A stretch of 61,670 nt of DNA from Clostridia bacterium DTU084 (GTDB lineage Bacteria; Bacillota; DTU084). Shown piece by piece: positions 35,803 to 60,892 of the stretch. A program made the translations under genes and the position numbers. The notes beneath the pieces are model-generated. The model was not told the origin of the DNA and ran no database searches. It worked only from the letters and a program-made list of their open reading frames with translations. The stretch spans positions 1 to 61,670 of the forward strand of contig LFTB01000140.1 in NCBI GenBank assembly GCA_001512905.1, given 5' to 3'. The first letter of the stretch is position 1, and the number at the start of each line of letters is the position of its first letter.

Positions 35803-37315
35803 GGCTACCTCCAACTGTTTCCTCGCGGGAAATCTTTACTTCTGCTGCCTGCCGTGTTTTGAACTGATAGAGAGCGCCCAGCAGTTCGATGGCGATAATT
35901 GGCATCATCGCCACTATGGCAATCATACCAAATCCATCTGCCACCAGATCTGCAGATGGAACTTGGGCTGCAACACCTTGCACAAAGGCCAGGGAGAAAG
36001 TTGCAGTCATGGGGCCGGACGCAACGCCGCCTGCATCAAAGGCCATGCCAACGAACAGTTCCGGTACGAAAAAGGCTAAAATAACGCTGAGCCCAAACCC
36101 AGGCACCAAATACATCCACAGCTGGATATTGGGGACGAGGATTCGCAAGGTGGACATGAAAATGGACAGCCCAACTGCAACAGAGAGGAACATGAAAACC
36201 AGATTCCGCTTGACAGATCCACCTGTGACTTCCTCCACCTGGCTAGTTAAAACGTGAACTGCAGGCTCAGCCAAGACGGTTGTCAGCCCCAGAAACAGCG
36301 CTACAATCAGTACCGGGACAGGTGAGTTCATAGACACAAGCTGTATGCCAACTTCGATCCCAAGTGCCATAAAACCGCCGTTTACGCCCAACAAAAACAC
36401 TACTAGCCCAAAAAGCGTTAAAAACAATCCTCGGGCGATCCCTAGAACCCGGCTTCTTTTCTGCTTAAAGACAAATATTTGAAACAGCACATAAACTATG
36501 ATAATCGGCAAAAGGGAGAGCAGCGCCTCCCAAGCCAGCCTCGGCAGTTTGGACCCGTATATTCCCCATAAGCTGGAATTGGTAATTGCCTGCTCTGGCA
36601 GTGCACCCTTTAGTTTGTCTATACCCAAGATACGGCCTGTGATCAATACTCCAAGGATGGCACCTGTTGATGAAATCCCCACCAGTCCAAAGCTGTCTGC
36701 TTCGCTTGATTTGCTGTCCGATTTCAGCGCCGAGATGCCGCCTGCCAAGGCCAACATAAAGGGAACTGTGACTGCACCTGTCGTTGCCCCGGAAGCGTCA
36801 AAGGCTATGGCAATAAAATCAGCTGATGAAAACAATGAAAGAATGAAAATCAAACCGTAGGCAACAGCGAACACGTGCTTTAGGGGAACGCCTTTCATTA
36901 TACGCAGCATTCCCAGGGTCATCATAACTCCGAGTCCCACTGAAACAACGACAACCATTAATAATTTACCAAATTGACCTGCTGTTACGCTGTCAACCTG
37001 GCCGGCTAAAATATGAAGATCCGGCTCCGCATAGGAAATGAAAAACCCCAAGACCAAACAGATTGTAATTATGCTTGCATAAGTTTTCGAGTAAGCCAGA
37101 GCGTTTCCGATTCCGTGGCCTATGAGGTCCAGTCCCTGGTCTATACCGAACAGGAATATAGTCAACCCAAAAATGACGAGAACAGAGCCCAAAAGGAAAG
37201 CATACAGCATAGATGAATCCAATGGGCAGATGGTAAAGTGCAGCACAAGCACCATTACTGTAATTGGCAGCACAGAAGCCAATACCTCTTTTAATTTGTC
37301 TTTTAACGCATCCAA
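35795..37315 (-). CDS. Polytopic membrane protein with internal duplication (resembles what databases call DUF1538), cassette A
   Basis: 506 aa and highly hydrophobic. The two halves share AEP(D/A)(L/V)H(I/V)L...QV(D/E) and AFD(A)(S/G)G(A/V) motifs. It is translationally coupled to the PII-like gene. Confidence 0.75.
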   Translation of the reverse strand: MDALKDKLKEVLASVLPITVMVLVLHFTICPLDSSMLYAFLLGSVLVIFGLTIFLFGIDQGLDLIGHGIGNALAYSKTYASIITICLVLGFFISYAEPDLHILAGQVDSVTAGQFGKLLMVVVVSVGLGVMMTLGMLRIMKGVPLKHVFAVAYGLIFILSLFSSADFIAIAFDASGATTGAVTVPFMLALAGGISALKSDSKSSEADSFGLVGISSTGAILGVLITGRILGIDKLKGALPEQAITNSSLWGIYGSKLPRLAWEALLSLLPIIIVYVLFQIFVFKQKRSRVLGIARGLFLTLFGLVVFLLGVNGGFMALGIEVGIQLVSMNSPVPVLIVALFLGLTTVLAEPAVHVLTSQVEEVTGGSVKRNLVFMFLSVAVGLSIFMSTLRILVPNIQLWMYLVPGFGLSVILAFFVPELFVGMAFDAGGVASGPMTATFSLAFVQGVAAQVPSADLVADGFGMIAIVAMMPIIAIELLGALYQFKTRQAAEVKISREETVGGSHG

Positions 37316-37361
37316 AACAACACCTCTTTGCAGCTAGATTAAAAAATTCATGAACAAATTC

Positions 37362-37390
37362 ATTCTATTCACAGTATTAAATGAATCCAA
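37362..37390 (-). promoter_or_regulatory. Candidate promoter for cassette A
   Basis: Minus-strand TTGGAT, a 17-nt spacer, then TAGAAT. Just downstream is the imperfect inverted repeat ATGAA-TTTG-TTCAT. Confidence 0.35.
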
Positions 37391-38046
37391 AGGAAATTCG
37401 ACTGGTACAATCTCCCTGCTGTGATTCTACCTACCTGACTTGGCTCCCTTTTTTATATACAGCTCAAAACTTGGGCGAGAATGAGTTCCGAAGCCAAAAA
37501 ACAGTGTCCCTTTTTCTATACTCTAAAAAGTCCCATTATTTTAACCTGGGATGGTCAGACTGGTTTCGAAAAGCCCTATTCCTTTTGAGCTTTTGTTTAG
37601 CTGTTGTGTTGAAAAGAAGCCACTGAAAACCAGCTATATTCTATGCAAACACCTTGTGTGCGCTGATTTACTCATTAGAAAGGATATAAGTCCTTTAATC
37701 TCCTGATTACTCTCGTTTTAATAATTTATTCGCCATCAAGTGCCAAAACCCTGCAAAAAATGAAGGATTTTTCGTGGTTTTAAATGGTTCCTGAAACACT
37801 ATATACAGAAATGAAAAGGCAAGCACTGCCGCAGGGAAATATCACCTTGCTCAGCTTTGGTTTTGATTGTCATTAGATTTTCTCTGTGGGATCAGCCACC
37901 GACAGCCTGGCTAAAAGGCTAAAGGCCTTTGATGGTGCAGAACAGCAATGTTTTATTTTGCCCTTGCAGGACCACAGAACAGCTGCTGGGCAGAGAACTA
38001 AAAAAATACAGGGTGATTTGTCAAACAGCGGCCAAGGTCTCAGCGA

Positions 38047-38080
38047 CAAAAAAAGACAGAGGGACACGATGCCCGCTGTC
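38047..38080 (-). terminator. Intrinsic terminator after coiled-coil paralogue 1
   Basis: Minus-strand GACAG-C-GGG-CATCGTGT-CCC-T-CTGTC followed by TTTTTTT. Confidence 0.65.
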
Positions 38081-38153
38081 GTTGCTTCATGCGGCTTTGT
38101 TTAAATCACCGCCTTTATGAATTGCTTTATTTATAAGACAATCAACAGCCCAG

Positions 38154-38747
38154 CTATTTAATCAGACTAGCCACAGACAAAATTGCGGTTATTGCCAAGC
38201 CTATTACCGAAAGGCCGGTTGCGACTATAAACCCAATCATCCATTTTTTTGTGGTATCAATCATGTTGATGATTGCCTTGACATTTTCTTCAATCCTAGC
38301 GTTGATAGCCAGGTTTTCAGCATGCCGCTGATTATCCCTCTCCCGCATTTCCGCAAGGGTCTGCTCAACGGAACGTTGTACCAGATCTACAGTTCTCTGT
38401 ATCCCATCTGCATAGGTCTTAATTTCATCACGATATGATTTGATATCCGCTTTGATATCCTCCCGCATTCGGTTGTTTTCTTCTTTTATAGCAGAAAATT
38501 TATCTTCTATGTTGGCAAATTTCTCTTCAAGAAACTTGTCGAAATAATGTTCTGACATAGGAGATCTGCCTCCTTTTACAAAGTTAGTGGATGCTAACTC
38601 AGTTGGAGCAGATACTAGCTCCCTAATAGATATATTCTTCTCAAAACTGTAAGGATCCTGCTCTGCTGGGGAAGGTTTAGCTGCAGCATTACTGTTTAAT
38701 TTAGTATCATCACCCGCAGCCTTTCTAAAAAGATTACCGCCAGACAT
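38154..38747 (-). CDS. Tail-anchored coiled-coil membrane protein, paralogue 1 (long form; an internal start at 38558 is possible)
   Basis: The C-terminal TM is KKWMIGFIVATGLSVIGLAITAILSVASLI. The core is heptad-rich. The ATG at 38747 lies 7 nt after GGAGG. An internal ATG at 38558 lies after AAGGAGG and aligns with the start of paralogue 2. Confidence 0.7.
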   Translation of the reverse strand: MSGGNLFRKAAGDDTKLNSNAAAKPSPAEQDPYSFEKNISIRELVSAPTELASTNFVKGGRSPMSEHYFDKFLEEKFANIEDKFSAIKEENNRMREDIKADIKSYRDEIKTYADGIQRTVDLVQRSVEQTLAEMRERDNQRHAENLAINARIEENVKAIINMIDTTKKWMIGFIVATGLSVIGLAITAILSVASLIK

Positions 38748-39009
38748 CAAAATACCTCCAAATGAAAGTAGTTCATTAAAACTATTTCATTTAGCACACA
38801 GCAGAGGATGAATTTATTCTCAGCTCGCCAATAATAATTTCAGCTGCTTTGCTTGATGTTTTTATTCGTGTATCTTCTACGGGATTCTTCGTGCCATCAA
38901 AGTCTTGCAGACTCTATAACTTTTCACAGCCACAAAAATATTTATTAAGACAGAATCCCACTGAGGCAAACCACTTTTCGGCGTTTTTTAGAAATAATCA
39001 AGAGCACAA

Positions 39010-39393
39010 CTATTGAACCAAGCTAGTTATAGATACAATTGCTGTTATTATTAAACCTATTATGGAAAGTCCTGTGCCAAGAATATACCCTATCATCCAT
39101 TTTTTTGTGGTATCAATCATGTTGACGATTGCCTTGACATTCTCTTCAATCCTGGCGTTGACAGCCAGGTTTTCAGCATGCCGCTGCTTATCCCTCTCCC
39201 GCATTTCCGCAAGGGTTTCGTCTACAGATTTCTGCAACCTCTCTGCACAGGCTTTAATTTCATCACGAAATGATTTGACATGCGCTTTGATCTCCTCCCG
39301 CATTCGGTTGTTTTCTTCTTTTATAGCAGAAAATTTATCTTCTATGCTGGCAAACTTCTCTTCAAGAAACTTGTCAAAACAATGTTCTGACAT
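39010..39393 (-). CDS. Tail-anchored coiled-coil membrane protein, paralogue 2
   Basis: The ATG at 39393 (MSEHCFDKFLEEKF) lies 9 nt after GGAGGAGG. The product is about 80% identical to paralogue 1. The C-terminal TM is KKWMIGYILGTGLSIIGLIITAIVSITSLV. Confidence 0.75.
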   Translation of the reverse strand: MSEHCFDKFLEEKFASIEDKFSAIKEENNRMREEIKAHVKSFRDEIKACAERLQKSVDETLAEMRERDKQRHAENLAVNARIEENVKAIVNMIDTTKKWMIGYILGTGLSIIGLIITAIVSITSLVQ

Positions 39394-39856
39394 ACAACAA
39401 CACCTCCTCCAGCTTTTCATCAGCAGCGATCCCGCTGGGAAGATACTGTCCCTTTAAGAGAAGAATTTTTTCAACAAAAAGCACAGCTGGTCAAACTGCC
39501 CACTCTGGCCTTTTAAGCTTTGGACATGAATATCAACTCCTTTTTAGATTATGGCTCTGTTTCCTGATAGCGTTTTTTTCACTCCACACATAATGCGACG
39601 TCTCTAATTGAATCTTGATTTCCTGGCTGATTTCATTTGTGCAGTTTCAAATGCAAAATATATGGTGAAGTGTCAACTTTGCCACAGAAACAATTTGCCT
39701 GCAGGCATGTCCGGGAGAAACAGCAATTAATATCTCAGAAACAACAAACTTCAAACTAAGATGTGAAATTTAGAAAATTGGGGCGGGAATAAGGGTTGTC
39801 GCGAAGAACCGATTATAATGAGGAGTAGGTGGCTGGCAAGGAGTAGGACAAAATCT

Positions 39857-39887
39857 ATCCCGCCATTATTTTAATAACAGGCGGGAT
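39857..39887 (-). terminator. Hairpin downstream of the FAD-protein gene (possible operon terminator)
   Basis: ATCCCGCC, a 15-nt loop, GGCGGGAT. The minus-strand context continues AGATTTTGTCC, a weak T tract. Confidence 0.35.
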
Positions 39888-40033
39888 GACAGTCAATACA
39901 GAAAGTAGATAAATTGCTGTTCTTTTGCTGAAGCCGTAGGCTTTCTTGTCATGTTATTGCAAGATGGATCTTCCATTTTGCACCTCAGCCGGAAGGTGGT
40001 TGCTGGAAGCTTTCCTTTTGGCTCTATAAGCCC

Positions 40034-47548: not shown

Positions 47549-47579
47549 AAAAAAAGCCCCCTGCCGAAAAGCAAGAGGC
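47549..47579 (-). terminator. Intrinsic terminator closing the four-gene fibre-like locus
   Basis: Minus-strand GCCTCTTGC-TTTTCG-GCAGGGGGC is a 9-bp stem with two G-U pairs. It is followed by TTTTTTT. Confidence 0.8.
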
Positions 47580-47605: not shown

Positions 47606-50089
47606 TTAAGGTACCTCAAAGACCTGCGGCGAGGGCGTGCGGAAGACCTCAAGGGGCTTTTCTTCTTCCAGGACAGCAAGCTCAAGCTCCCTTTCCTCGC
47701 CTGCCTTGAGGGTAACCACAGTTTCGGATAGGTAATGAGAAGCTTGGAATTGTCCGCTGGCCAAAGCGATCTGGTAGGTGCCCGGCAGGACGTAAGCGAA
47801 GCTGAAGCTGCCCTCAGCATCTGTAACTGCCCGGCTGACCACCTTCTCGCCTTGGAGGAGCAGGAGCCAAACCCCTCGGGCTTTTGCATCTTCCATCTTC
47901 AGCGTTCCACTCAGGCGTGCGCCCTGGACAAGAGGCCAGTCGAAAATGGTTTCCTCACCTTTCTCAAGCCGGACGAAGGTGGAGGTTACTGTTGTCGGCA
48001 AAAGGCCCACAGGCAGGTCCCCTTCCCGCAGGAAGAGGGGGTATTCTCCTGGGAGCATGGCGCCGAATTCATAGGAGCCATCCTTGTCAGTTTGGACATA
48101 CTCGCCAGCAAGCAGAATGCCGCAGCCGGAGATGGCTCTCTCTCCTTGCTGCCAGATCCCGTCGCCGTTTTCGTCCAGGAACACTCTCCCCTTCAGTCTG
48201 CCCTTGGTCTTCAGGAATGGGAATGGCGTCCTCAAATTAACGCCATAGCCCACTGTCACTTCCCAGGTAGAGGGCTGATCCTGAGGGAGGTGAAGCTTCC
48301 CTTCTATGTGCACTTTCTGCAGCGCAGGAAGTTTTTGGGTGAGCTTGAGCCTGATGGATTGGCCGTCCTGCCTTCGTCCCTGCCACTCAAACTCCCAGTC
48401 CCTCTGCAGCTGCCGGTACATAAAGCCCAGTTTCACCTCCAGAAGCTGCTCTCGACTTACAGCAGCAAGCCACCACGAGAAAGGCCGCTTGTAAAAGCCG
48501 AAGCGGAGGTAGTCCCGGGGCACGCTCAAGGGCAGCTGGGTGTGGGAATAGTAAAGGTGAGAAGAGGACCAGTATTTGTAGGCAGTTATCTCCCAGCCAG
48601 TTTCCTCTACCTTCAGTCCTTCCTCCTGCCGCCTGCCGTAGCCCCACCTCAGGTTCACATTGGTTCTCCCGAAGGGAAGGGCAAGGCCCACAGATGCGTA
48701 ATCTTCCTGCAGCCTGGCTACCTCAGGCAGGTCTTCTACATTATTATATCTCGTATAGGCAGAAAAAAGGAAAGGACTGCTCTGGCCGCTGAAGCTCAGC
48801 CGCCACAAATCCTGATACCTTCCTAAGGTATTGGGGCCTGCCCGCAGCCAGTCCAGAGCCCACAGCGCAGTCGGCCTTCTGCCCTGCCCCCCTAACCTGA
48901 TCCCCAATTCGGAAGAAGGAACCCGCCAGGCCACAGGCAGCCCGATCTCCGCCCACAAGCGGCCGATCTCGACAGCTGCCTCGGATCTGCCGTAGAACCA
49001 GATCTTCTGTTCCTCTTCCATGAGGAAGGTCAGGCTGCTGCCGCCTTTGCGGTAGGCAAAGTAGCTGGCTAGATCAGGACTCCAGAACAAGCTCGATGTT
49101 TTTTCGCTCTGCTGCACTGCAAACAGAATTCCAGGATCTCTCACAGGCTGCTGCAGGGTGTTGCCTGCATAGTCTGTATGGCCAAGGCTCAAGGTCCAGG
49201 GGTGCTTTTTCCAGCTGAACAGACCCCGCCCTGCATTTTCCGGGCCGTATAGCTGCAGATCCAAGTGAACGCCGCCCCCTGGCCAGCTGCTGTCCCCCCA
49301 AAAGCTTCCCTGCCATCTGAAAGCTCCGTCCTCTGTCCAGGTCCCCTCGATCTCCAGTCTGCTGAGGAGATCTGGCGTTAAGCGGGTGCTGCCAGCAGAG
49401 GAAAGGACAACCAAAGGCAGCCTCAACCGCTCAAAAACTTCCGTACTGTCTTGTTCCCCCACTTCCAAGACCAGCCAGGTACTGCCTGGGACGGCTGTTT
49501 CCAAGGCTTGGATCACAACAGCACCGTGGTGCCTTTGTCCCTGCTCCAGGCGGGGCAGCCGGACTGGCTGTGCGGCAAATCCCCGGGGCAGGCGGACCCG
49601 CAGCCAAAAGGCTGTTGAATAGTTGCTTGTGTTCTCTAAGGTAAAGGGCAGGACCAGCCTCTCCCCGCGGGCTACAGTCAAGTCCGTGCGTCCCAAAGTC
49701 AGGATAGCGCCCCTCTGCTTTTCCACAAGCACAGTGACAACAGCCTGAACCTCCTCAGCTTCGCTTCTCGCTGTAAAGATGATGTGGTGCTGCCCGTCTG
49801 CCGCTGCACCGGAAGGCACTTGGACTGTGATGGGAACTAAAAGCTCCTCCCCAGCGGCAATGGTTCTGGCCTCCGGCAGGCTCAAAAGCTGCCAAAAAGG
49901 CGGCAGCTCTACTGTAAAATCTACAGCCAAATCGCTTGTGCCTGTGTTTCTTACAGTAAAACCCACAGTGATAAAGCTTCTGGGATCTGCGCTTCTGTGT
50001 GCAGGTCCTGTGACTTCCAGCTGGCCAGCCCAGGCCACGGTCCCCAAGGAGAACAGACATAATAATAAAATGCTCAGTTTTTTCATCAT
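47606..50089 (-). CDS. Large secreted multidomain protein, usher-like in size and layout (function unknown)
   Basis: The ATG at 50089 follows AAGGAG. Signal peptide MMKKLSILLLCLFSLGTVAWA. Two N-terminal beta-sandwich-like modules are followed by a Trp/Tyr/Arg/Gly-rich core. The C-terminal part has an SdrD-B-like segment (FLDENGDGIWQQGE) and a carboxypeptidase-regulatory-like segment (TDAEGSFSFAYVLPGTYQI). Confidence 0.7.
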   Translation of the reverse strand: MMKKLSILLLCLFSLGTVAWAGQLEVTGPAHRSADPRSFITVGFTVRNTGTSDLAVDFTVELPPFWQLLSLPEARTIAAGEELLVPITVQVPSGAAADGQHHIIFTARSEAEEVQAVVTVLVEKQRGAILTLGRTDLTVARGERLVLPFTLENTSNYSTAFWLRVRLPRGFAAQPVRLPRLEQGQRHHGAVVIQALETAVPGSTWLVLEVGEQDSTEVFERLRLPLVVLSSAGSTRLTPDLLSRLEIEGTWTEDGAFRWQGSFWGDSSWPGGGVHLDLQLYGPENAGRGLFSWKKHPWTLSLGHTDYAGNTLQQPVRDPGILFAVQQSEKTSSLFWSPDLASYFAYRKGGSSLTFLMEEEQKIWFYGRSEAAVEIGRLWAEIGLPVAWRVPSSELGIRLGGQGRRPTALWALDWLRAGPNTLGRYQDLWRLSFSGQSSPFLFSAYTRYNNVEDLPEVARLQEDYASVGLALPFGRTNVNLRWGYGRRQEEGLKVEETGWEITAYKYWSSSHLYYSHTQLPLSVPRDYLRFGFYKRPFSWWLAAVSREQLLEVKLGFMYRQLQRDWEFEWQGRRQDGQSIRLKLTQKLPALQKVHIEGKLHLPQDQPSTWEVTVGYGVNLRTPFPFLKTKGRLKGRVFLDENGDGIWQQGERAISGCGILLAGEYVQTDKDGSYEFGAMLPGEYPLFLREGDLPVGLLPTTVTSTFVRLEKGEETIFDWPLVQGARLSGTLKMEDAKARGVWLLLLQGEKVVSRAVTDAEGSFSFAYVLPGTYQIALASGQFQASHYLSETVVTLKAGEERELELAVLEEEKPLEVFRTPSPQVFEVP

Positions 50090-50106
50090 CAATCTCCTTG
50101 TGAAGC

Positions 50107-50540
50107 TCAATCTGAAGTTAGGGTATAAATCAAAGTTATCCCATAGTAATCAGGTGGATCCAACCACGAAAGCTTGATGCGATAATCCACATCCAGCTGG
50201 ATTGTGCCGGCCTCTCCCTCGGCAACAAGCTCATCGGAAGTGCTCAGTTCCTGAAAAGGGGAATCAGAGCGCCACAAAAGGTCCGTATTTGGCTTCATGC
50301 TGCCTCCAGGTGTGGTGCGCTGAAGTAATCCTGGTTTGTTCTTACGTACAGCTTCCACGTTCCTTCTGCAGTGACGGTGAGCCTGTTTGCAGCGGGATAA
50401 TCCAGGTAGCCGCGGTCTAGATCCGCTGCTGTTGCTTGCGCAGTGGTAAAGTTGGATTCTACAGTTAAAGAACCTGCAGCGCTGGCCTGCCACGCCAGCA
50501 GAACAAACAAAACAACAAGCAGGCGAACTTTATTTCCCAC
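50107..50540 (-). pseudogene. Second small secreted subunit, reading frame broken near 50295-50310 (frameshift)
   Basis: The 5' frame (50295-50540) gives the signal peptide MGNKVRLLVVLFVLLAWQASA and the TWKLYV motif. The 3' frame (50107-~50300) gives LLWRSD...VDYRIKLSWLDPPDYYGITLIYTLTSD. Both halves align to the intact paralogue at 51421-51903. Confidence 0.7.
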
Positions 50541-51339
50541 TGGCTTCCCCCCTTATTTCAAAGGGGGCTTCTGCTGCTAAAAGCGTCTGCCCACCATAGT
50601 CCAGCACTGCAAGCAACAAATACTTGCCAGCAGCTGGCACGGATACCTGGCCGCTGATGCTGCGCTTTGCTTTCGGCAGAATGGAAAAGGGTTGCAATGA
50701 TACTTTCTCCAGCACCTCTCCATCCAAAGTGCGCACCTCAAGCCTTCCTTTGTAGCTCAGGTGCACATTGCCGTAATTTTCCAATTGGATAGATACAGGA
50801 ATCTTTCCATCCCTGGGATTTTCCAGAGAGCAGCCTGTGATTTTCGTGCCAGGTTCCTCAGTTCCTCGGGCGACAACGTAGATCTTTATCCCGTAGCGCA
50901 GAAGGGCTCTGATGCTGATGTTCATTTTGTCCCCTTCTGCCTGAGGCGGTGCAGGGAGACTGCCTCCTTCCACAAAGAGCATGGCAGTTCTGCTGCCCCG
51001 CTGATCGTGAGGAACCTGAACCTCCAGGATCAGCTTGCCTGATTGTTTGGGCTCCAGCACGATTGTGGATTCTGCAAGTTTTAGCTGTCCTGCTGCAGAG
51101 TTTGGCAGAGTGCCTGCAGGATAAAAAAGCTGGGTTCCATCTTCTGCACGCTCCCAATCTTCCAGATAAACCCGCACTGCAGCAGGCTGAGGATCCGGGT
51201 TATATAGAGGGATCTCAATCTGCCCTTTTTCCCCAGGTATGAGGCTGATTATCCGATCTTCAATGGAACAGTGCACGAGACCAAAAGCAGTACTGGCAAA
51301 ACACAGCCATAGGCAAATTGCGCGAAAAGTAAACTTCAA
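50530..51339 (-). CDS. Secreted two-domain protein, pilus-chaperone-like in size and position (function unknown)
   Basis: The TTG at 51339 lies 6 nt after AGGAGG. Signal peptide MKFTFRAICLWLCFASTAFG. Two ~115-aa beta-rich halves follow. There is no TM anchor. Its stop overlaps the GTG start of the next gene. Confidence 0.65.
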   Translation of the reverse strand: MKFTFRAICLWLCFASTAFGLVHCSIEDRIISLIPGEKGQIEIPLYNPDPQPAAVRVYLEDWERAEDGTQLFYPAGTLPNSAAGQLKLAESTIVLEPKQSGKLILEVQVPHDQRGSRTAMLFVEGGSLPAPPQAEGDKMNISIRALLRYGIKIYVVARGTEEPGTKITGCSLENPRDGKIPVSIQLENYGNVHLSYKGRLEVRTLDGEVLEKVSLQPFSILPKAKRSISGQVSVPAAGKYLLLAVLDYGGQTLLAAEAPFEIRGEASGK

Positions 51340-51360
51340 AGTCCCCCTCCTTCCCTTGGC

Positions 51361-51403
51361 GAAAAACGGGGCTGAGAAGCAAGCTTCTCCGGCAGTAAGC
51401 CCC
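51361..51403 (-). terminator. Intra-operon terminator-like hairpin after the first subunit gene
   Basis: On the minus strand, GGGGCT...AGCCCC encloses GAGAAG-CTTG-CTTCTC. The structure is followed by GTTTTTCG. It lies between subunit A and the chaperone-like gene. Confidence 0.55.
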
Positions 51404-51420
51404 TTTTGAAACCTTTTCGG

Positions 51421-51903
51421 TTAGCTGTCCTTGGTTAAGGTATACTCCTGGACGATGCTGTATGCACCGGGAACATCTTTTGCCCAGTCGAGTTTCACTC
51501 GATAATTAAGGGTGACAACTGTGCCGCCTGTGGGGCCGCCTGAAATAACATCAGTAACATTACTATTGCTGCAGCTTTGGAAATCCCCCTGCCCTTCCAG
51601 CTTCCACTCGTAATGGCTAACAGCTTTCTCCACGCCCTCAGGCCAGGACCAATCTTTTGTCTTCATTGAAAGCTTCCAGGGCACGTTGCTTTTCACAGTG
51701 AGGCTGGCTGTAGCTGTTTCTGTGTAGCTGGCATTAAATTGATCTACGCCAGGGGTGGGAATGACTATATACTCGTCGTTTATGATCAGCTCCTGGGTGT
51801 CCACTACAAGCAGTTCCACATCACTTTGTCCTGTTTCATCGGCAAAAACGATCACGGAAAAAGCCAAACAAAATAATGCTGCAAATAAACAAGCCCTTTT
51901 CAC
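51421..51903 (-). CDS. Small secreted subunit A (candidate major fibre subunit; family not recognised)
   Basis: The GTG at 51903 follows AGAGGGGGAAAG. Signal peptide MKRACLFAALFCLAFSVIVFA. The protein is 160 aa, beta-rich, and ends LNYRVKLDWAKDVPGAYSIVQEYTLTKDS. Confidence 0.75.
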   Translation of the reverse strand: MKRACLFAALFCLAFSVIVFADETGQSDVELLVVDTQELIINDEYIVIPTPGVDQFNASYTETATASLTVKSNVPWKLSMKTKDWSWPEGVEKAVSHYEWKLEGQGDFQSCSNSNVTDVISGGPTGGTVVTLNYRVKLDWAKDVPGAYSIVQEYTLTKDS

Positions 51904-51990: not shown

Positions 51991-52017
51991 GAAAAAATAC
52001 ATCACCCTAAAGGGTGA
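51991..52017 (-). terminator. Second of two tandem intrinsic terminators after the LuxR-type regulator
   Basis: Minus-strand TCACCC-TTTA-GGGTGA followed by TGTATTTTTT. Confidence 0.55.
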
Positions 52018-52020
52018 GAC

Positions 52021-52054
52021 AATAAAAAATCACCCCCAACTTAAGTAGGGGTGA
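52021..52054 (-). terminator. First intrinsic terminator after the LuxR-type regulator
   Basis: Minus-strand TCACCCCT-ACTTAAGTT-GGGGGTGA followed by TTTTTTATT. Confidence 0.7.
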
Positions 52055-52081
52055 TGGAGTCTACAGCAGAAGAAAAAGTCT

Positions 52082-55000
52082 CTAAAGCAGCTCTAATTCC
52101 TCAGCCCGCTTTACAGCCTGCACTCTCCTAGTTACCTGCAGCTTGCTGTAGATGCTTTTGAGGTGGGTTTTGACAGTATTAATAGACATGTCCAGCTTGT
52201 CGGTGATTTCTTTGTTGGAAAGTCCTGCTGCCATCATCCTCAGCACCTCAAGCTCCCTTTCGGTAAGGGGCTCCACCAGGGGAGAGGAAGAGGTGTCATC
52301 ATGTTCTAAGAAGGCCTGAAACTCTTTAGTGTTGAGCAGGCGAACGGTCAGCAGCTTCAGCAGTTCTATCCGTTCTTCCGTAAAGATGTCTGTCAGCATG
52401 GTGTTTTCAAGGTACAATACGCCCAGAGGAATGCCCTGCAGCTCCAGAGGCAGGCAAAGAATGCAGCCTGCTGCCTTTGCCAGATAAGGATCCTTGGCAA
52501 AGATGCCTGGCTGCGCTGTATCATTTAAAACAACTGCCTCGTGGGTCCGGGCAGAGTAAAACACTACCGCCTCAGACAGTTTGTGCTCTGCCACAGGTTC
52601 GCCCTTTACAGCCCTCCCACAGCTGCTGTCTGTCTCAAGGGCTGCTTCAACAAACAATTCATTATCCTTTTCCATGATAAAGAAGCCTCTGTTTGCACAT
52701 GCGACTTCTGCGGCGATCTCCAGGAAAACCGCAGCAAGTTTTGCGGGATCTGCCTGGGCAATTATTTCTACGGCTTTGTCTAGCTTGCACAGCTCGAGAC
52801 CATTGGCTGCAGCCATCTGGCTGGCTGAGAAAAACAGCTGCCTCCAAATCTGGGCTGTGTCGAGAGCTTTCTCCGCATCTGCAGCGATCAGATCTGGATA
52901 CTCCTCCTGCAGGCTCTGCGCTTTTGCAGCTGCTCCCCAGGCCGTGTACAGCCTGTAGGCGTCGGTGAGGTAGACACGTGCGATCCTGCCTCTGCCCCCT
53001 TGGGCGTAATATTTTCCAGCCAGTTCGCAGGCTAAGGCTTCGTTTTGGAGGAAGCCGCCCTCCCTGGCAGAAGCAATTGCATCATCGTACAATTTCTCAG
53101 CCTGTTCCCTTCGGCCTGCAAGTCTTGCCCTTTCCGCCTCAACAAGCAGGTATTTATGTGAAAAATTTGCCGGACAGCTCAATGCCCATTTTTTCATCTG
53201 CCGCTGGTTTTTCGCAAGCTCCCTGCCCAACCTGCGCTGCTCTTTGCGCGTCGCTTTTTCATAACAGGCAGCAGCCACCAGGGAGTGGTAGAAATTGCAG
53301 TCAGAAGAGAGCAGAAAGCCCATCACAACGTCTAAAAGGGGTTTGATTTCCTCCATTATGGCGAGAGCCTGCCTGTATTCACCAGTTAAGTATAAGAACT
53401 GCATTCTGGTGAAAAGATATGTAATCTGGGAGGCCTTGTCCATTTTCCCGGCTTGGTAAAGCTCTTCAAGTACAGTTGATGAAGAGGCCTCGCCTTTCAA
53501 TTTGGCAGCCATCCTCCCGTAAATTGCAATGTTAAGTTCCAAGTTTTCGTGCTGGACTTTTTTGGTGAATTTTTTGCATTTCTCAACTTCAGCCAGGACT
53601 TCCTCAAGGGGTACGCCCATCAGGTATTTGTTTTCCAGGAGCACTACGTGTGCATAGCCGCCGATGAGCACATTTCCCGCTTCAAGAGCACAGGCTGCAG
53701 CCCTCTGCAGATAAACAAGCCCTTCTTTGGCAGGGGCAGTCCAGTGTAAAATCAAAGCTCCTATTGTGAAATAGACTATGCAGCTTGAGGGACTGTTGCC
53801 GTACTTTTCAGCAAGGGCTTCCCCCACCCCTGCCAGTTCGCAGCCTTTGGCGAAATTGCCGAGGACGCTGCCTTCAAGGATGCTGTAGCCTAAAAAGCCG
53901 ATGGACGCTACCTCTGCAACTCCATGTTTTAATGCAAAGTTGCCGGACTTTACGATCATCAAAGCGTATAAATCGGGGTGGCTCGTGCAGGTGGCGAGAA
54001 TGAACTCCACGAAAAGCTGGGCTGCCTTTTTCTGAAGGGAGTCCTGCACCTCCGGCAGGTTAAGCAAATCGCCGCTTTTCTTATTGCGGATCAGCCACTT
54101 ATAAACTGCAAGTTCCCTCATGTGATGGAAAAGGCTTGGCCTGAGAGGGAGCTTATAGCCGAAAAGTTTGAGGGTGTCAAGCCCAACCTGTACAGCTTCA
54201 GTATGTTTTCCGCCCCCTGAATACAGCCTCATCCTGGTTATGCCAAGCTCTGCTTTCTCAAATGCTGTTCTTGCCCGCTTTTCCACCTCAAGGAACTGCT
54301 TTTCGGCCTCAGCTTCATTGCCCAGCATATATTCGCAGGCTGCCCTTTGGAGATGAAGAGCGAAGCACAGCTGGTAGTCCCTCTGCCAGCCGCCTTCTCC
54401 CAACAGCTCAACGCCAGCTGCAAGGCAATTGAGGGCAGAGTTGTAGTCAGCAGAGGCTTTGGCTTTTATCCCTGCCTTGAAGTTTAACCTTGCCAGCTGC
54501 AGCCGCTCCCCTGGATCCGCGATTAGCTCCAGACTCCGATTTATATGGTCTAATACAAAGGGAAGCTGCTCGTCCAAGCTGTCCTCAGCAGACTGCTGGA
54601 GAATCATCCTTCCCATCTCCAGGTGAATCTGTTTTGCTTCCTGTTCTGAAAGCAGGGAATGTACTGCCTGTTCGATTCTGTCGTGCAGAAACTCATTTTG
54701 GTTGCCTGCCACCTGTGAAATCAGTCCCTCTCTCAAGGCAGGGGTCAAGCATTTCTGCACCTCGGGCATGGTCTTCCTGCAGACGGCAGCGAGGATTTGC
54801 AAATCAAAGGTGCTCCCCATACAGGATGCCGTTTTCAAGATCTCAAGGGTTTGGCGGGGCAGCTTCTGCAATCTCCAAAGAAGCAGATCCAAAACATCGG
54901 CAGGCATCTGAAGTCTGTAGATCGCATCCGGTTTCCAGGTCCAGCCTCCTTTGGCGCTGTCGAAGAAGATGATTTTTTCATCTTCCATGGTCTTCAGCAT

Positions 55001-55648
55001 CTGGCCTAGAAAAAAGGGATTCCCGGAGGTTTTACGATACACGCTCTCTGCAAGCAGGCTCACCTTCTCTGGTGAACAATGCAGGGTTTCAGCCAAATAC
55101 GCTGTCACTTCTTTCCGATTGAGAGGATAAAGGTACAGCTCTTGGACTGGCAGAGCCGCTTTTCGGAGCTCTGCAGCCATTGCGTGTAAAGGGTGGCGCG
55201 GGGTGATTTCGTTATCCCTGTACGCGCAGACGATAAGGAGATATTTCAAATTGGTGTAAGCGGATAGCTTCGCCAAGAGCCTCAAGGCAGGCGCATTAGC
55301 CCACTGCAGGTCATCCAAAAATAAGACCAAGGGTTTTTTTCTGCTGGCAAAGACTGCGAGGAATTTCTCTAAAACCAACAAAAAACGGTTCTGCGCCTCT
55401 TGAGGCCGCAGTGCCTCCACTTGCGGCTGAGCTCCGACAATCAGCTCCAGCTCCGGGATCAGTTCTGTGAGGATGGCACCACTGCTGCCCAAAGCCCTGA
55501 GAATTTCTTCCTTCCAAAGGGCCAGGCTTTTACTACTTTCTGTGATCAGCTGTCTTATAACCATCCGCAGGGCTGCAGCAAAAGCTGAATAAGGTATGTT
55601 CTTCCGCAGTTGGTCATATTTACCGTATCCCCAATAGCCCTTCTCCAT
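52082..55648 (-). CDS. STAND-type (MalT/PknK-like) regulator fragment: helical/TPR-like repeats, GAF-like domain, LuxR-type HTH
   Basis: The C-terminus LTERELEVLRMMAAGLSNKEITDKLDMSINTVKTHLKSIYSKL is a LuxR HTH. Upstream is a GAF-like block (GIPLGVLYLEN). The Walker B-like LVLFLDDLQWA is present. The Walker A lies upstream of the first ATG and so is excluded from this ORF. Confidence 0.8.
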   Translation of the reverse strand: MEKGYWGYGKYDQLRKNIPYSAFAAALRMVIRQLITESSKSLALWKEEILRALGSSGAILTELIPELELIVGAQPQVEALRPQEAQNRFLLVLEKFLAVFASRKKPLVLFLDDLQWANAPALRLLAKLSAYTNLKYLLIVCAYRDNEITPRHPLHAMAAELRKAALPVQELYLYPLNRKEVTAYLAETLHCSPEKVSLLAESVYRKTSGNPFFLGQMLKTMEDEKIIFFDSAKGGWTWKPDAIYRLQMPADVLDLLLWRLQKLPRQTLEILKTASCMGSTFDLQILAAVCRKTMPEVQKCLTPALREGLISQVAGNQNEFLHDRIEQAVHSLLSEQEAKQIHLEMGRMILQQSAEDSLDEQLPFVLDHINRSLELIADPGERLQLARLNFKAGIKAKASADYNSALNCLAAGVELLGEGGWQRDYQLCFALHLQRAACEYMLGNEAEAEKQFLEVEKRARTAFEKAELGITRMRLYSGGGKHTEAVQVGLDTLKLFGYKLPLRPSLFHHMRELAVYKWLIRNKKSGDLLNLPEVQDSLQKKAAQLFVEFILATCTSHPDLYALMIVKSGNFALKHGVAEVASIGFLGYSILEGSVLGNFAKGCELAGVGEALAEKYGNSPSSCIVYFTIGALILHWTAPAKEGLVYLQRAAACALEAGNVLIGGYAHVVLLENKYLMGVPLEEVLAEVEKCKKFTKKVQHENLELNIAIYGRMAAKLKGEASSSTVLEELYQAGKMDKASQITYLFTRMQFLYLTGEYRQALAIMEEIKPLLDVVMGFLLSSDCNFYHSLVAAACYEKATRKEQRRLGRELAKNQRQMKKWALSCPANFSHKYLLVEAERARLAGRREQAEKLYDDAIASAREGGFLQNEALACELAGKYYAQGGRGRIARVYLTDAYRLYTAWGAAAKAQSLQEEYPDLIAADAEKALDTAQIWRQLFFSASQMAAANGLELCKLDKAVEIIAQADPAKLAAVFLEIAAEVACANRGFFIMEKDNELFVEAALETDSSCGRAVKGEPVAEHKLSEAVVFYSARTHEAVVLNDTAQPGIFAKDPYLAKAAGCILCLPLELQGIPLGVLYLENTMLTDIFTEERIELLKLLTVRLLNTKEFQAFLEHDDTSSSPLVEPLTERELEVLRMMAAGLSNKEITDKLDMSINTVKTHLKSIYSKLQVTRRVQAVKRAEELELL

Positions 55649-55726: not shown

Positions 55727-56641
55727 TTATCCCCTGCAGGCCCGCTGAAAAGAGGCTTTGAGAATTTCCGCTTCTTCTGTCCTCCCGAACAGCTTGTCCG
55801 GCAGCTGAAAATAGGGGGAGATCTCCTGCTCTCCTGGGGTAAGCTGAATGCTTCCCGTCTCCTGCCACTGCAGTCTGCAGTCTGTCAAGTCCCTCAGCAG
55901 CCCCAAAGCTGTTTGATAGCGATGGCTGGGGTTTTTAGCCAACAGCTTCATGACGAGTTCAGCTAAAGCCGGGGGCAAACTGGGATTGAGTTGAACTGGA
56001 CTTTGCGGCTGCTTTGTGGTGTGAACTTGAAGCCAGCCGGCAGGGCCGTCAGCTTTCAGGGGGAGCTGTCCTGTTAACAGCTCATAAAAGATTACTCCCA
56101 AAGAATAATAATCGCTGCGGTAATCGCTTCTGCCCAAACCCAATTTTTCCGGTGCTGCGTACTTGAGGCTTTCCTCTCTTTCAGGGAAAACAAATTCCTT
56201 TTCAAAGCCGATGATTTGCACCTTTGCTGTGCCGGGGTGGATAAAGATGTTCTCAGGCCTCAAATCTCCGTGGATAATCATTTTCTGCTGCAGCTTGTCC
56301 AGGATCTGTGCCAGCTGAATGGCAAGGTCAAAAAAAAGTGGAAGCCCGACCACGCCAATGGTGTATTCCCGCAAGGGAATGAAACCCAGATCTTCCAGGA
56401 CCATGGCCAGGGTCTTGCCGGATCGCTCCAGGCTCACGGGTTTGAATACGCCTTCCACGTCCAGATCCCGAAGCAGTTCGTATTCGTAGATGAGCTTTGA
56501 CACAGCAAAAGCGTTATTCTGCTGTTTAAGAGTTTTGATGAGTACAGGCAGTTCTCCGCATGATGAACAGCCCTTATAAATAATCTGCTGGCCATCTTCC
56601 AGGAGCTTTTCTCTGATCAGATAATTCTGCAGCTCGATCAT
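55727..56641 (-). CDS. Hanks-type Ser/Thr protein-kinase-like domain (degenerate motifs), ending at an in-frame TAA
   Basis: VLIK, HGDLRPEN and AAPE motifs are present. The DFG position reads IGFE, and there is no GxGxxG loop. Confidence 0.75.
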   Translation of the reverse strand: MIELQNYLIREKLLEDGQQIIYKGCSSCGELPVLIKTLKQQNNAFAVSKLIYEYELLRDLDVEGVFKPVSLERSGKTLAMVLEDLGFIPLREYTIGVVGLPLFFDLAIQLAQILDKLQQKMIIHGDLRPENIFIHPGTAKVQIIGFEKEFVFPEREESLKYAAPEKLGLGRSDYRSDYYSLGVIFYELLTGQLPLKADGPAGWLQVHTTKQPQSPVQLNPSLPPALAELVMKLLAKNPSHRYQTALGLLRDLTDCRLQWQETGSIQLTPGEQEISPYFQLPDKLFGRTEEAEILKASFQRACRG

Positions 56642-59303: not shown

Positions 59304-60764
59304 TCAGTGAATGGTTATAGGTTTCGAAAGGAGGGAGATCTTCAATTCTATCTTCTCGCCCTGAGGAATGGTAAGCATCCTTTGGTATGTTTGGTATCCT
59401 TCTTTCCTCACCAATAGCATGTAGCGGCCTGGCTCCACGAGGGCAAACTCAAAGCGGCCGTCTTGCCCTGTCTTCGTCTTGTATTCTCCAAATTCGCCGC
59501 TGAGAGTCACCTCTGCCCCTGAGATGGGTACTGTGGGGATGCTGCTGTCATCTCTGATTAGGGAGAATCTCCTCTCTGCCCCATAAACCACTCCTACTAC
59601 CACAGATGGCTCCTGCTTTGCAGGCCTGAGGAGGAAATTCACCTGCAGCTGTTGTCCTGGTTTTAGATCTACAAGCTCTTGCTTGGTGAAGTATTCTGGG
59701 TGTTGTGCTTCAAGCAGATATCGGCCTTGAGGCAGGACTACGTTGTAGTAGCCCCGGCTGTCTGTGATCACAACACGCGCTTTCTCAGCATAATCTTCTA
59801 GGCCGGTTATCTGAATTCTAGCGAAGGCAATAGGATTTCCAGTCTTCATGTCTTTCACTTGGCCGAAAATCCTCGCTTCCCTTGCTGGCAAAGGTTCCAA
59901 TAAAACCCTCAGCTCCAGAGTTTCTCCTGCTTTGAGCTGTACTTTCTCCTGCCAGGGTTTGAAGCCTGCTTTTGTGACGCTCAATAGGCCCCAACCTGCA
60001 GGGATGCCGAAAAATTGAAAAACGCCGAGATCGTCTGTGACCGTTTCCCAGCTGCGCTGATTGTCCATGGTCAGAACCACCCTGGCTCCAGGAACTGGCA
60101 GCCCGATACGGGCATCCAGCCGTCCCCTGCTCTCCACCCGGCCGTGGACGAAGGCAGGCGGAAGGTTTTTTGGAACCAGTTTGAAAGCGAGGGAGATTAT
60201 TTCGCCTGATTTGACTTCAACTTGTTCAACATGTTCTTGGTATTTCATGTGCCTTGCAGTGATCAAATATTGGCCAGGAGGCAGCGATAGCCGCCAATAT
60301 CCTTTAGCGCCTGTAAATGTCCTGGGGGCTCTGAACTCAACGCTTTCCCGCAGGGGCTGGGCTGTCACTTCCACCTGCCAGATGCCCTCTCCAGTTTCAG
60401 CATCCAGGATCTGCCCGATCAAAACACCTGGCTCCGGCGGCAGCGGCTCTAAAATGATTTTAAACTCTTGTTGTCTGCCGGCCTCCACCTCCACCTGCTG
60501 AAGTTTATAACCAGCTTTTCGGACCACAAGCACCCCTAGACCTTTGGGTACAGATTGGAAATGGAAGTAGCCGGCCTCATCGGTTTCTGCTGCAAACCTG
60601 TCTTCGCTGTAGAGCAAAAGCACCTGAGCGCCAGCTACACCCTCTCCAGCCTGATCCAACACCCAGCCGGAAAGCTGTTCTTTTTCGGTGATACCAGCTG
60701 CACTGGCTATCCCAATTGCCAGCATCAGCACACAAAGCACAGACCAGATAAATCTCCTTCGCAT
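59304..60764 (-). CDS. Secreted/anchored protein made of five carboxypeptidase-regulatory-like beta-sandwich repeats
   Basis: The ATG at 60764 (MRRRFIWSVLCVLMLAIGIASA) follows AAGGAGGTG. Five ~85-95-aa repeats each carry a TD..G.F.F..(V/L)P.G motif. The track ORF is over-extended to 60875. Confidence 0.8.
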   Translation of the reverse strand: MRRRFIWSVLCVLMLAIGIASAAGITEKEQLSGWVLDQAGEGVAGAQVLLLYSEDRFAAETDEAGYFHFQSVPKGLGVLVVRKAGYKLQQVEVEAGRQQEFKIILEPLPPEPGVLIGQILDAETGEGIWQVEVTAQPLRESVEFRAPRTFTGAKGYWRLSLPPGQYLITARHMKYQEHVEQVEVKSGEIISLAFKLVPKNLPPAFVHGRVESRGRLDARIGLPVPGARVVLTMDNQRSWETVTDDLGVFQFFGIPAGWGLLSVTKAGFKPWQEKVQLKAGETLELRVLLEPLPAREARIFGQVKDMKTGNPIAFARIQITGLEDYAEKARVVITDSRGYYNVVLPQGRYLLEAQHPEYFTKQELVDLKPGQQLQVNFLLRPAKQEPSVVVGVVYGAERRFSLIRDDSSIPTVPISGAEVTLSGEFGEYKTKTGQDGRFEFALVEPGRYMLLVRKEGYQTYQRMLTIPQGEKIELKISLLSKPITIH

Positions 60765-60785
60765 AACAACACCTCCTTGACTATA

Positions 60786-60794
60786 ATTATACCA
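60786..60794 (-). promoter_or_regulatory. Extended -10 promoter element for the five-repeat protein gene
   Basis: Minus-strand TGGTATAAT lies about 20 nt upstream of the start codon. The -35 is poor. Confidence 0.45.
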
Positions 60795-60864
60795 AATATC
60801 GGAAAAATCATACATATTCTTCTCGAAAAAAGTCTGCCCGGACCTGAAACTCCCATTTAAACCC

Positions 60865-60892
60865 AAAAAGCCCACGGGTAAATTCGCGGGCT
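60865..60892 (-). terminator. Intrinsic terminator after vapC
   Basis: Minus-strand AGCCCGCG-AATTTACC-CGTGGGCT is an 8-bp stem with one G-U pair. It is followed by TTTTGGGT. Confidence 0.6.

Follow-up and report, generated by a model that had tools for sequence, protein, structure and literature searches.

A possible chaperone-usher-like surface assembly locus beside cwlD in an uncultured, spore-forming Bacillota bacterium

The contig analysed here (LFTB01000140.1; "the window" is this whole 61.7-kb stretch of DNA) comes from an uncultured Bacillota bacterium of anaerobic digesters and carries rpoB/rpoC, EF-G/EF-Tu and cwlD. On the upstream side of cwlD, and adjoining it, lies an operon of four minus-strand genes encoding, in order, a small secreted subunit (A), a chaperone-like helper of 269 amino acids (aa), a second subunit (B) and a large protein of 827 aa. 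We propose, with a confidence only a little better than even, that these genes specify a three-component chaperone-usher-like pathway by which small beta-rich subunits would be exported and assembled on the surface of an outer-membrane-bearing, spore-forming member of the Bacillota. By sequence comparison, the system falls within a large unannotated family found across several phyla and outside the classical families of chaperones, ushers and pilins. In its parts list, its operon design and the fold of its helper it looks chaperone-usher-like, and it has the appearance of a previously undescribed relative with non-canonical parts.

The pathway can be pictured in four steps. The Sec system would carry all four products over the inner membrane, as suggested by the Sec-type signal peptides read by eye at the N-terminus of each. 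The soluble helper, whose fold was modelled, would then bind periplasmic A and B through beta-strand complementation, in the manner of PapD-type chaperones and of WxLIP. The 827-aa protein would be held in the outer membrane by a porin-like beta-barrel core, for which the support is indirect, and its modelled N- and C-terminal beta-sandwich domains may receive chaperone-subunit complexes as the end domains of ushers do. Finally, subunit A, presumed to be the major structural subunit, would supply the bulk of the assembly from the first gene, with a conserved attenuator hairpin behind it, and subunit B, which is shorter and without the N-terminal strand segment of A, would be a tip or minor subunit, switched off in the window strain through a 4-nucleotide (nt) repeat change. 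We count in favour of this pathway the closely spaced or overlapping genes, the attenuator after A and the C-terminal strand motif that the subunits share.

The operon and its two subunits

The operon is bounded by terminator-like hairpins on the minus strand, located by a pattern scan and by folding. At the 5' boundary, two hairpins with U-runs at 52029-52055 (-15.1 kcal/mol, z -2.95) and 52002-52017 (-9.0 kcal/mol, z -2.6) end the upstream LuxR-type regulator gene, and an intrinsic terminator at 47556-47579 (-16.5 kcal/mol, z -4.94, with 0 of 200 shuffles folding equally well) closes the operon upstream of cwlD. Between them, all on the minus strand, are the open reading frames (ORFs) listed for subunit A (51421-51903, 160 aa) and the helper (50530-51339, 269 aa), the frameshifted gene for subunit B (50107-50540) and the gene for the large protein, our usher analogue (47606-50089, 827 aa). 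The large ORF would span 47606-50110 (834 aa) if a TTG start were used; homologues use the ATG at 50089. Subunit B starts at a GTG (50540) within the 3' end of the helper gene, an overlap of 11 nt, and 17 nt separate the subunit B stop from the ATG of the large gene, which has AAGGAG ahead of it. A first-pass annotation of this DNA had described a terminator-bounded unit with secreted products of 160, 269 and about 827 aa and a subunit B start overlapping the helper gene, all of which agrees with what we find; its spacing of 15 nt between the subunit B stop and the large gene is corrected here to 17 nt.

Between subunit A and the helper gene, at 51360-51404 on the minus strand, a further hairpin (-17 kcal/mol, z -2.1) is followed by GUUUUU. 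A hairpin and U-run of like design occupy the same place in three related loci from metagenomic and genomic contigs, which are referred to by L numbers (L001 9917-10003, L008 9919-10003 and L027 7378-7456), and the inner stem sequences differ among them. Judged from the sequence, this element is likely a partial terminator, or attenuator, that keeps subunit A in excess.

Subunits A and B are paralogous by alignment. Subunit A carries a W-x-L motif (W76, L78) and ends in D.PG.Y....YTLT, and in alignments of 11 and then 23 subunits drawn from all lineages the tryptophan is invariant, the leucine two residues on is nearly so, and the extreme C-terminus is conserved as D.PG.Y....YT[LV]T. An N-terminal beta-segment of A, VELLVVDTQELIIND (roughly 10 residues), is missing from B-type paralogues. 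At least 19 near-identical subunit A sequences occur on about 100 contigs. The absence of a recognisable pilin family, remarked on in the first-pass annotation, holds up: the 23 subunits gave no Pfam match even at E 10, including WxL (PF13731), Fimbrial (PF00419), SCPU (PF05229) and TasA, neither A nor B belongs to an NCBIfam family, Ena/DUF3992, TasA/SipW and spore coat U are likewise without a Pfam or NCBIfam match, and searches of Protein Data Bank (PDB) sequences with single proteins or with profiles were empty. Sortase pili, type IV pili, TasA and Ena were ruled out for this locus, there being no family matches and no fitting motifs.

Subunit B is broken in the window. Its gene is read as an N-terminal ORF of 81 aa (50295-50540), the C-terminal part lies in a different frame and ends at 50107, and the break maps to 50325-50328 (minus strand), where the window has TTAC only once in place of the TTACTTAC of the intact allele. 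The longer form is present in a sister assembly (L011), which encodes an intact subunit B of 145 aa; putting the four bases back into the window sequence likewise yields a product of 145 aa that lines up with its homologues. Thus, of the earlier description of a second subunit of about 144 aa paralogous to the first, the paralogy stands and the intact gene does not. In exact look-ups, more than 130 contigs had the truncated allele and about 12 had intact ones, counts that rule out an assembly or sequencing error and point to a natural tandem-repeat polymorphism. The alternation of TTAC and TTACTTAC could represent phase variation or a loss-of-function allele that is spreading.

A helper resembling both PapD-type chaperones and WxLIP

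The structural likeness of the helper to two assembly systems is of particular interest. Its AlphaFold2 model, built on a five-row alignment, consists of two beta-sandwich domains (pLDDT 80), with a long, disordered loop at residues 127-146 and, next to it, a conserved strand, LRYGIKIY (147-154). In a Foldseek search of the PDB with this model, the top three matches were Enterococcus faecium WxLIP structures, including the WxLIP-WxL complex 9i25 (E 1e-13 to 6e-12 for the three; 9i25_C E 1.4e-13, 9i1y E 2e-12; TM about 0.5 over 245-247 aligned columns). The chaperones CfaA and CsuC were in the top ten, followed by FimC, Caf1M and SafB (E 1e-9 to 1e-7, target-normalised TM 0.5-0.63). The two-Ig-domain fold first proposed for the 269-aa protein is therefore upheld, as a PapD-like pair of beta-sandwiches in the model and by the chaperone matches.

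At the level of sequence the helper matches no Pfam or NCBIfam family above threshold, and neither PapD_N nor PapD_C at E 0.1. Among 98 relatives searched against Pfam, WxLIP_PGBD (PF06030) appears weakly in 27 (best E 1.4e-6) and PapD_N (PF00345) in 4 (best E 1.7e-7). An exhaustive profile search returned 3,220 cluster representatives at E <=1e-3 and 1,051 at E <=1e-10, mostly of 260-290 aa, far more than the five clusters found by a word-indexed search. By these searches the helper family is large and unannotated; one relative, in a Bipolaricaulia genome, bears the NCBI label "molecular chaperone".

The helper ends in ...FEIRGEASGK, with no hydrophobic stretch and no membrane anchor, in agreement with the first-pass annotation, and an anchor is present in only 4 of its 162 closest relatives, all four of them distant. 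Such rarity of anchors fits a periplasmic protein, and we infer that a helper without one would be sensible only in a closed periplasm. Two variants of the helper were seen in distant loci. In one (L036 518-1561), the helper relative carries a C-terminal dockerin-like module, which suggests that it is tethered to a cohesin scaffold and does not diffuse freely. In one distant lineage (L012 4583-6058 and L028 5831-7306), the large gene is followed by a gene for a protein of 491 aa with the helper fold twice in tandem, next to one for a Wzy_C/TPR, O-antigen-ligase-like membrane protein.

The absence of any relation to WxL/DUF916 proteins, as first supposed, does not hold: the best structural match of the helper is E. 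faecium WxLIP (DUF916-DUF3324), weak WxLIP_PGBD matches occur among its relatives, and the subunits share the invariant W-x-L. The locus and the WxL/WxLIP csc clusters of Enterococcus, Listeria and Lactobacillales also have in common one two-domain protein accompanied by two small secreted paralogues. These features, together with a subunit C-terminal [YF]T[LV] placed where the second WxL motif falls and a host that is a Bacillota bacterium, would fit a monoderm, csc-like surface complex in which A and B are divergent WxL proteins held non-covalently on peptidoglycan, the helper is a stabilising WxLIP and the large protein is a secreted multi-Ig adhesin or glycan binder, with neither an outer membrane nor polymerisation.

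We consider a complex of that kind quite unlikely. WxLIP proteins consist of two Ig-like domains followed by a C-terminal transmembrane helix, which was found consistently in the WxLIP proteins analysed in PMC10599100, where strand insertion into WxL was also proposed; the window helper lacks this helix. PF06030 is not reached above threshold by any window protein, PF13731 is absent as noted above, and the conserved NQIDKxxxYFDLK motif is missing. In addition, csc clusters include at least two WxL-domain proteins, often with an LPXTG protein, and have no large barrel-type protein, whereas our locus has no LPXTG CscD-type gene and has an obligatory partner with a porin-related core. Finally, WxL proteins bind the peptidoglycan of monoderms, whereas the family described here travels with outer-membrane-type genes, having type IX secretion genes for neighbours in one bacterium and OmpA-type genes elsewhere. 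On the sequence evidence of a missing anchor, a missing Pfam WxL domain and an extra barrel-type protein, the locus is not a csc/WxL cluster. The likeness of the helper to both systems may nevertheless link the chaperone-usher and WxL machineries.

The large protein and its porin-related core

In the 827-aa protein, beta-sandwich domains stand on both sides of a large aromatic-rich core, as the first-pass annotation had read it. AlphaFold2 places an N-terminal pair of such domains at aa 22-231 (nt 49397-50026) and a C-terminal pair at aa 629-810 (nt 47660-48205), with a pLDDT of 75-90 for the flanking domains; the core lies between them, at aa 232-628 (nt 48206-49396; all minus strand). The share of tryptophan, tyrosine and phenylalanine is 15% over residues 235-625, compared with 6-10% for the flanking domains, and by eye the core reads as a long run of strands with alternating polar and hydrophobic residues. 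A junction motif, P.PFLKTKGR..G..F.DEN, also marks the protein. Pfam finds NPCBM_assoc and Ig_VWA7 in the N-terminal part and SdrD_B and CarboxypepD_reg in the C-terminal part, and the helper hidden Markov model (HMM) matches the N-terminal domains of the large proteins (E 5e-11 to 2e-5), so that these domains appear to be of the same kind as the first domain of the helper. About 9 kb upstream of the operon, at 59304-60875, there is a gene for a 523-aa secreted-looking protein with PEGA and five CarboxypepD_reg repeats, the latter being the domain type found at the C-terminus of the large protein.

The link of the core to a beta-barrel comes through its relatives. The core of the L012 homologue passes the gathering score of Pfam Porin_4 (PF13609; 37.5 bits against a cutoff of 27, E 3e-9), and at the same profile region the L014 core (E 0.021) and the window core (E 0.28) match weakly. 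In hhalign, the profiles of window-family cores and of six distant cores aligned with a probability of 97.7% (E 2e-12, 330 columns). The findings thus support an usher-like layout of the large protein and, indirectly, a link of its core to a porin-like barrel. The comparison with Porin_4 proteins has its limits, since those are stand-alone barrels of 300-400 aa, whereas here the core is set between four beta-sandwich domains, and a profile search with the core detects no solved porin. Custom strand-alternation measures of the barrel were dropped, as they failed to tell the core apart from the beta-sandwich domains. FimD ushers, which Foldseek matched to the large-protein model at TM 0.14, were disregarded because the matching region of the model is unconfident. 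The alignment of the large protein had 6 rows, and the word-indexed searches for homologues were insensitive (5, 13 and 11 matches).

Set beside the chaperone-usher pili (Fim/Pap, CFA/I, Csu/CupE/Mcu), the locus shows a recognisable set of common parts: subunits with signal peptides, a soluble two-Ig-domain helper that would be periplasmic and whose modelled fold matches CfaA, CsuC, FimC and Caf1M, and one large envelope protein with beta-sandwich domains, a central barrel candidate and two C-terminal beta-sandwich domains. An attenuator past the major subunit gene and an adjoining LuxR-type regulator gene are further points of likeness. The differences are equally plain. None of the window proteins falls into PapD_N/PapD_C, Usher, Fimbrial or SCPU. 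The kinship of the barrel candidate is with a porin family rather than with ushers, the large protein has N-terminal domains similar to the first domain of the chaperone itself, and the host is a spore-forming member of the Bacillota, with relatives in Bipolaricaulia and other uncultured lineages, as against Proteobacteria. The gene order and sizes had first been likened to those of a chaperone-usher operon; this comparison survives in the usher-like layout and the PapD-like helper fold and fails at the level of sequence, where both the "usher" and the chaperone fall outside the classical families.

Several observations weigh against a chaperone-usher-like pathway. The core has a pLDDT of about 25 in the AlphaFold2 model and no confident fold; the window core taken alone reaches Porin_4 at E 0.28 only, and the L001, L008 and L027 cores have no porin match. 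Profiles of the core and of the whole large protein, searched against PDB sequences, found nothing for the core and otherwise Ig-domain matches. Usher (PF00577), the family of 24-strand barrels with a plug, has no match in the window protein or in 10 homologues, even at E 1-10. PapD_C has none at any threshold, nor have Fimbrial and SCPU, the families of incomplete Ig-fold pilins with an N-terminal donor strand. Furthermore, no outer-membrane markers lie within the 61.7-kb window, and subunit B is disrupted in most sampled genomes, so that B may be dispensable or the locus partly decaying.

Some of these observations could be accommodated by an outer-membrane complex that forms no fibre. In that case the large protein would serve as a porin-like channel or surface anchor decorated with Ig-like domains, the small ones as cargo, surface partners or a sheath or S-layer-like coat, and the helper as a periplasmic holdase. 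The sole sequence-level family for the core is indeed a porin family, usher homology is undetectable in the large protein, B seems dispensable in nature, a subunit gene stands between the chaperone and the "usher", unlike in classical operons, and many homologues of the large protein have PKD domains added at the C-terminus, as surface-exposed proteins do. We regard such a complex as unlikely. Polymer-forming systems typically have what is seen here, one to three paralogous subunit genes per locus and an attenuator behind the first, and the C-terminal strand motif of the subunits, in company with a PapD/WxLIP-like partner, points to strand complementation.

Distribution, host envelope and sporulation genes

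The four-gene order of the window recurs in two other Bacillota lineages, as 161-267-139-827 aa in L001-L004 and as 161-266-143-826 aa in L007-L009; the neighbourhoods of these loci differ from that of the window, which indicates that the cassette moves as a unit. The module is kept even where the helpers are only about 30% identical (L012, L014, L015, L024 and L036), for example as 182-297-940 aa in L012, as 178-184-267-154-906 aa beside PorP/type IX secretion genes in L015 and as 197-321-268-1599 aa in L014, a member of the Bipolaricaulia. The recurring order is a subunit, the chaperone-like gene, an optional subunit and a large protein of about 830-1,600 aa, so that the expectation of synteny elsewhere is borne out in several Bacillota lineages and in distant phyla. 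An independent test was made by scanning metagenomes with a DNA pattern for the large-protein junction motif alone (P.P[FW].KTKGR..G..F.D). It returned ten loci. In eight of them the large gene is immediately preceded by a helper gene, mostly in company with one to three subunit genes; in the remaining two the contig stops short of the helper position. A profile scan of genome contigs gave one locus only. In two metagenome-assembled genomes, GX766 (GCA_012512655.1) and PLC26, window-type and L001-type cassettes lie at different chromosomal sites with about 57-60% protein identity, and these genomes therefore hold two paralogous loci each. Our literature search, which was incomplete in its coverage and hence is no proof that none exists, found no description of such a system.

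Evidence on the host envelope comes from a sister lineage (L027 and L029) with a helper 54% identical to that of the window. There, two genes from the cassette, two tandem OmpA-type genes (L027 9633-11223, L029 5316-6908) lie directly upstream of spoIIIAA and the cassette. They score above the Pfam OMP_b-brl threshold (E 7e-10 and 2e-10) and end in the C-terminal aromatic signals ...GVRYSF and ...GVRYSY. Their presence implies that this spore-forming clade makes outer-membrane barrels and, with that, a diderm spore former. By extension from these barrel genes beside the sister-lineage cassette, a diderm host for the window's organism, which the first-pass annotation had raised as a possibility, is plausible.

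The neighbouring genes also invite a link with sporulation. The window copy is directly upstream of cwlD, and in L027 (3730-9087) and L005 (253-8904) the cassette sits between spoIIIAA and spoIIIAB-AH, splitting the otherwise conserved spoIIIA operon, with no obvious terminator between cassette and spoIIIAB; both lineages checked for flanking sporulation genes (that of the window and that of L005/L027) are spore formers. The operon could accordingly specify a spore-specific structure, either an appendage or a coat on the outer spore membrane, expressed in the mother cell during sporulation. We think this very unlikely. The paralogous L001-type locus of the same genomes has no sporulation neighbours, strong terminators insulate the window operon on both sides, distant family members occur in non-sporulating phyla, the proteins match no Ena/DUF3992, TasA or spore-coat family, and no sporulation-sigma promoter was identified. 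The spore appendage suggested at first thus has its basis in the neighbouring genes and in nothing else that we found.

Upstream of the operon, at 52082-55648 on the minus strand, is the LuxR-type gene mentioned above, whose 1188-aa product contains AAA_16, TPR, GAF and LuxR/GerE helix-turn-helix domains by Pfam and NCBIfam. It is a candidate local regulator, tied to the operon by position alone. A separate gene for a 304-aa Ser/Thr kinase lies just upstream of it at 55727-56641, and the two together resemble a split kinase-STAND regulator. GerE-type regulators are found upstream of the cassette in L027 and L029 too. Elsewhere in the window, the region 36000-40000 has a GC content of 0.40-0.45, compared with about 0.52 in the rest, around a 198-aa coiled-coil-like ORF (38154-38750), and may be acquired DNA.

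Chaperone-usher pili are regarded as Gram-negative and mostly proteobacterial, and WxL clusters as Gram-positive. If a chaperone-usher-like pathway does operate here, it would widen the range of strand-complementation assembly machines, with thousands of members, a helper that is structurally between the two systems and a barrel-type partner, and it would assign a function to several unannotated protein families. We also put forward, tentatively and as something we would not call probable, that the locus represents an ancient and so far unrecognised branch of the chaperone-usher superfamily, common among diderm Bacillota and uncultured phyla, in which the "usher" derives from a porin and the subunits are WxL-like, and that the WxL/WxLIP clusters of Gram-positive cocci are what was left of it once the outer membrane had gone, the barrel protein having been lost and the chaperone having become membrane-anchored. 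If true, this would be a molecular trace of the diderm-to-monoderm transition in the Bacillota, and would give a testable marker for the change of surface machinery that took place when these bacteria lost their outer membrane.

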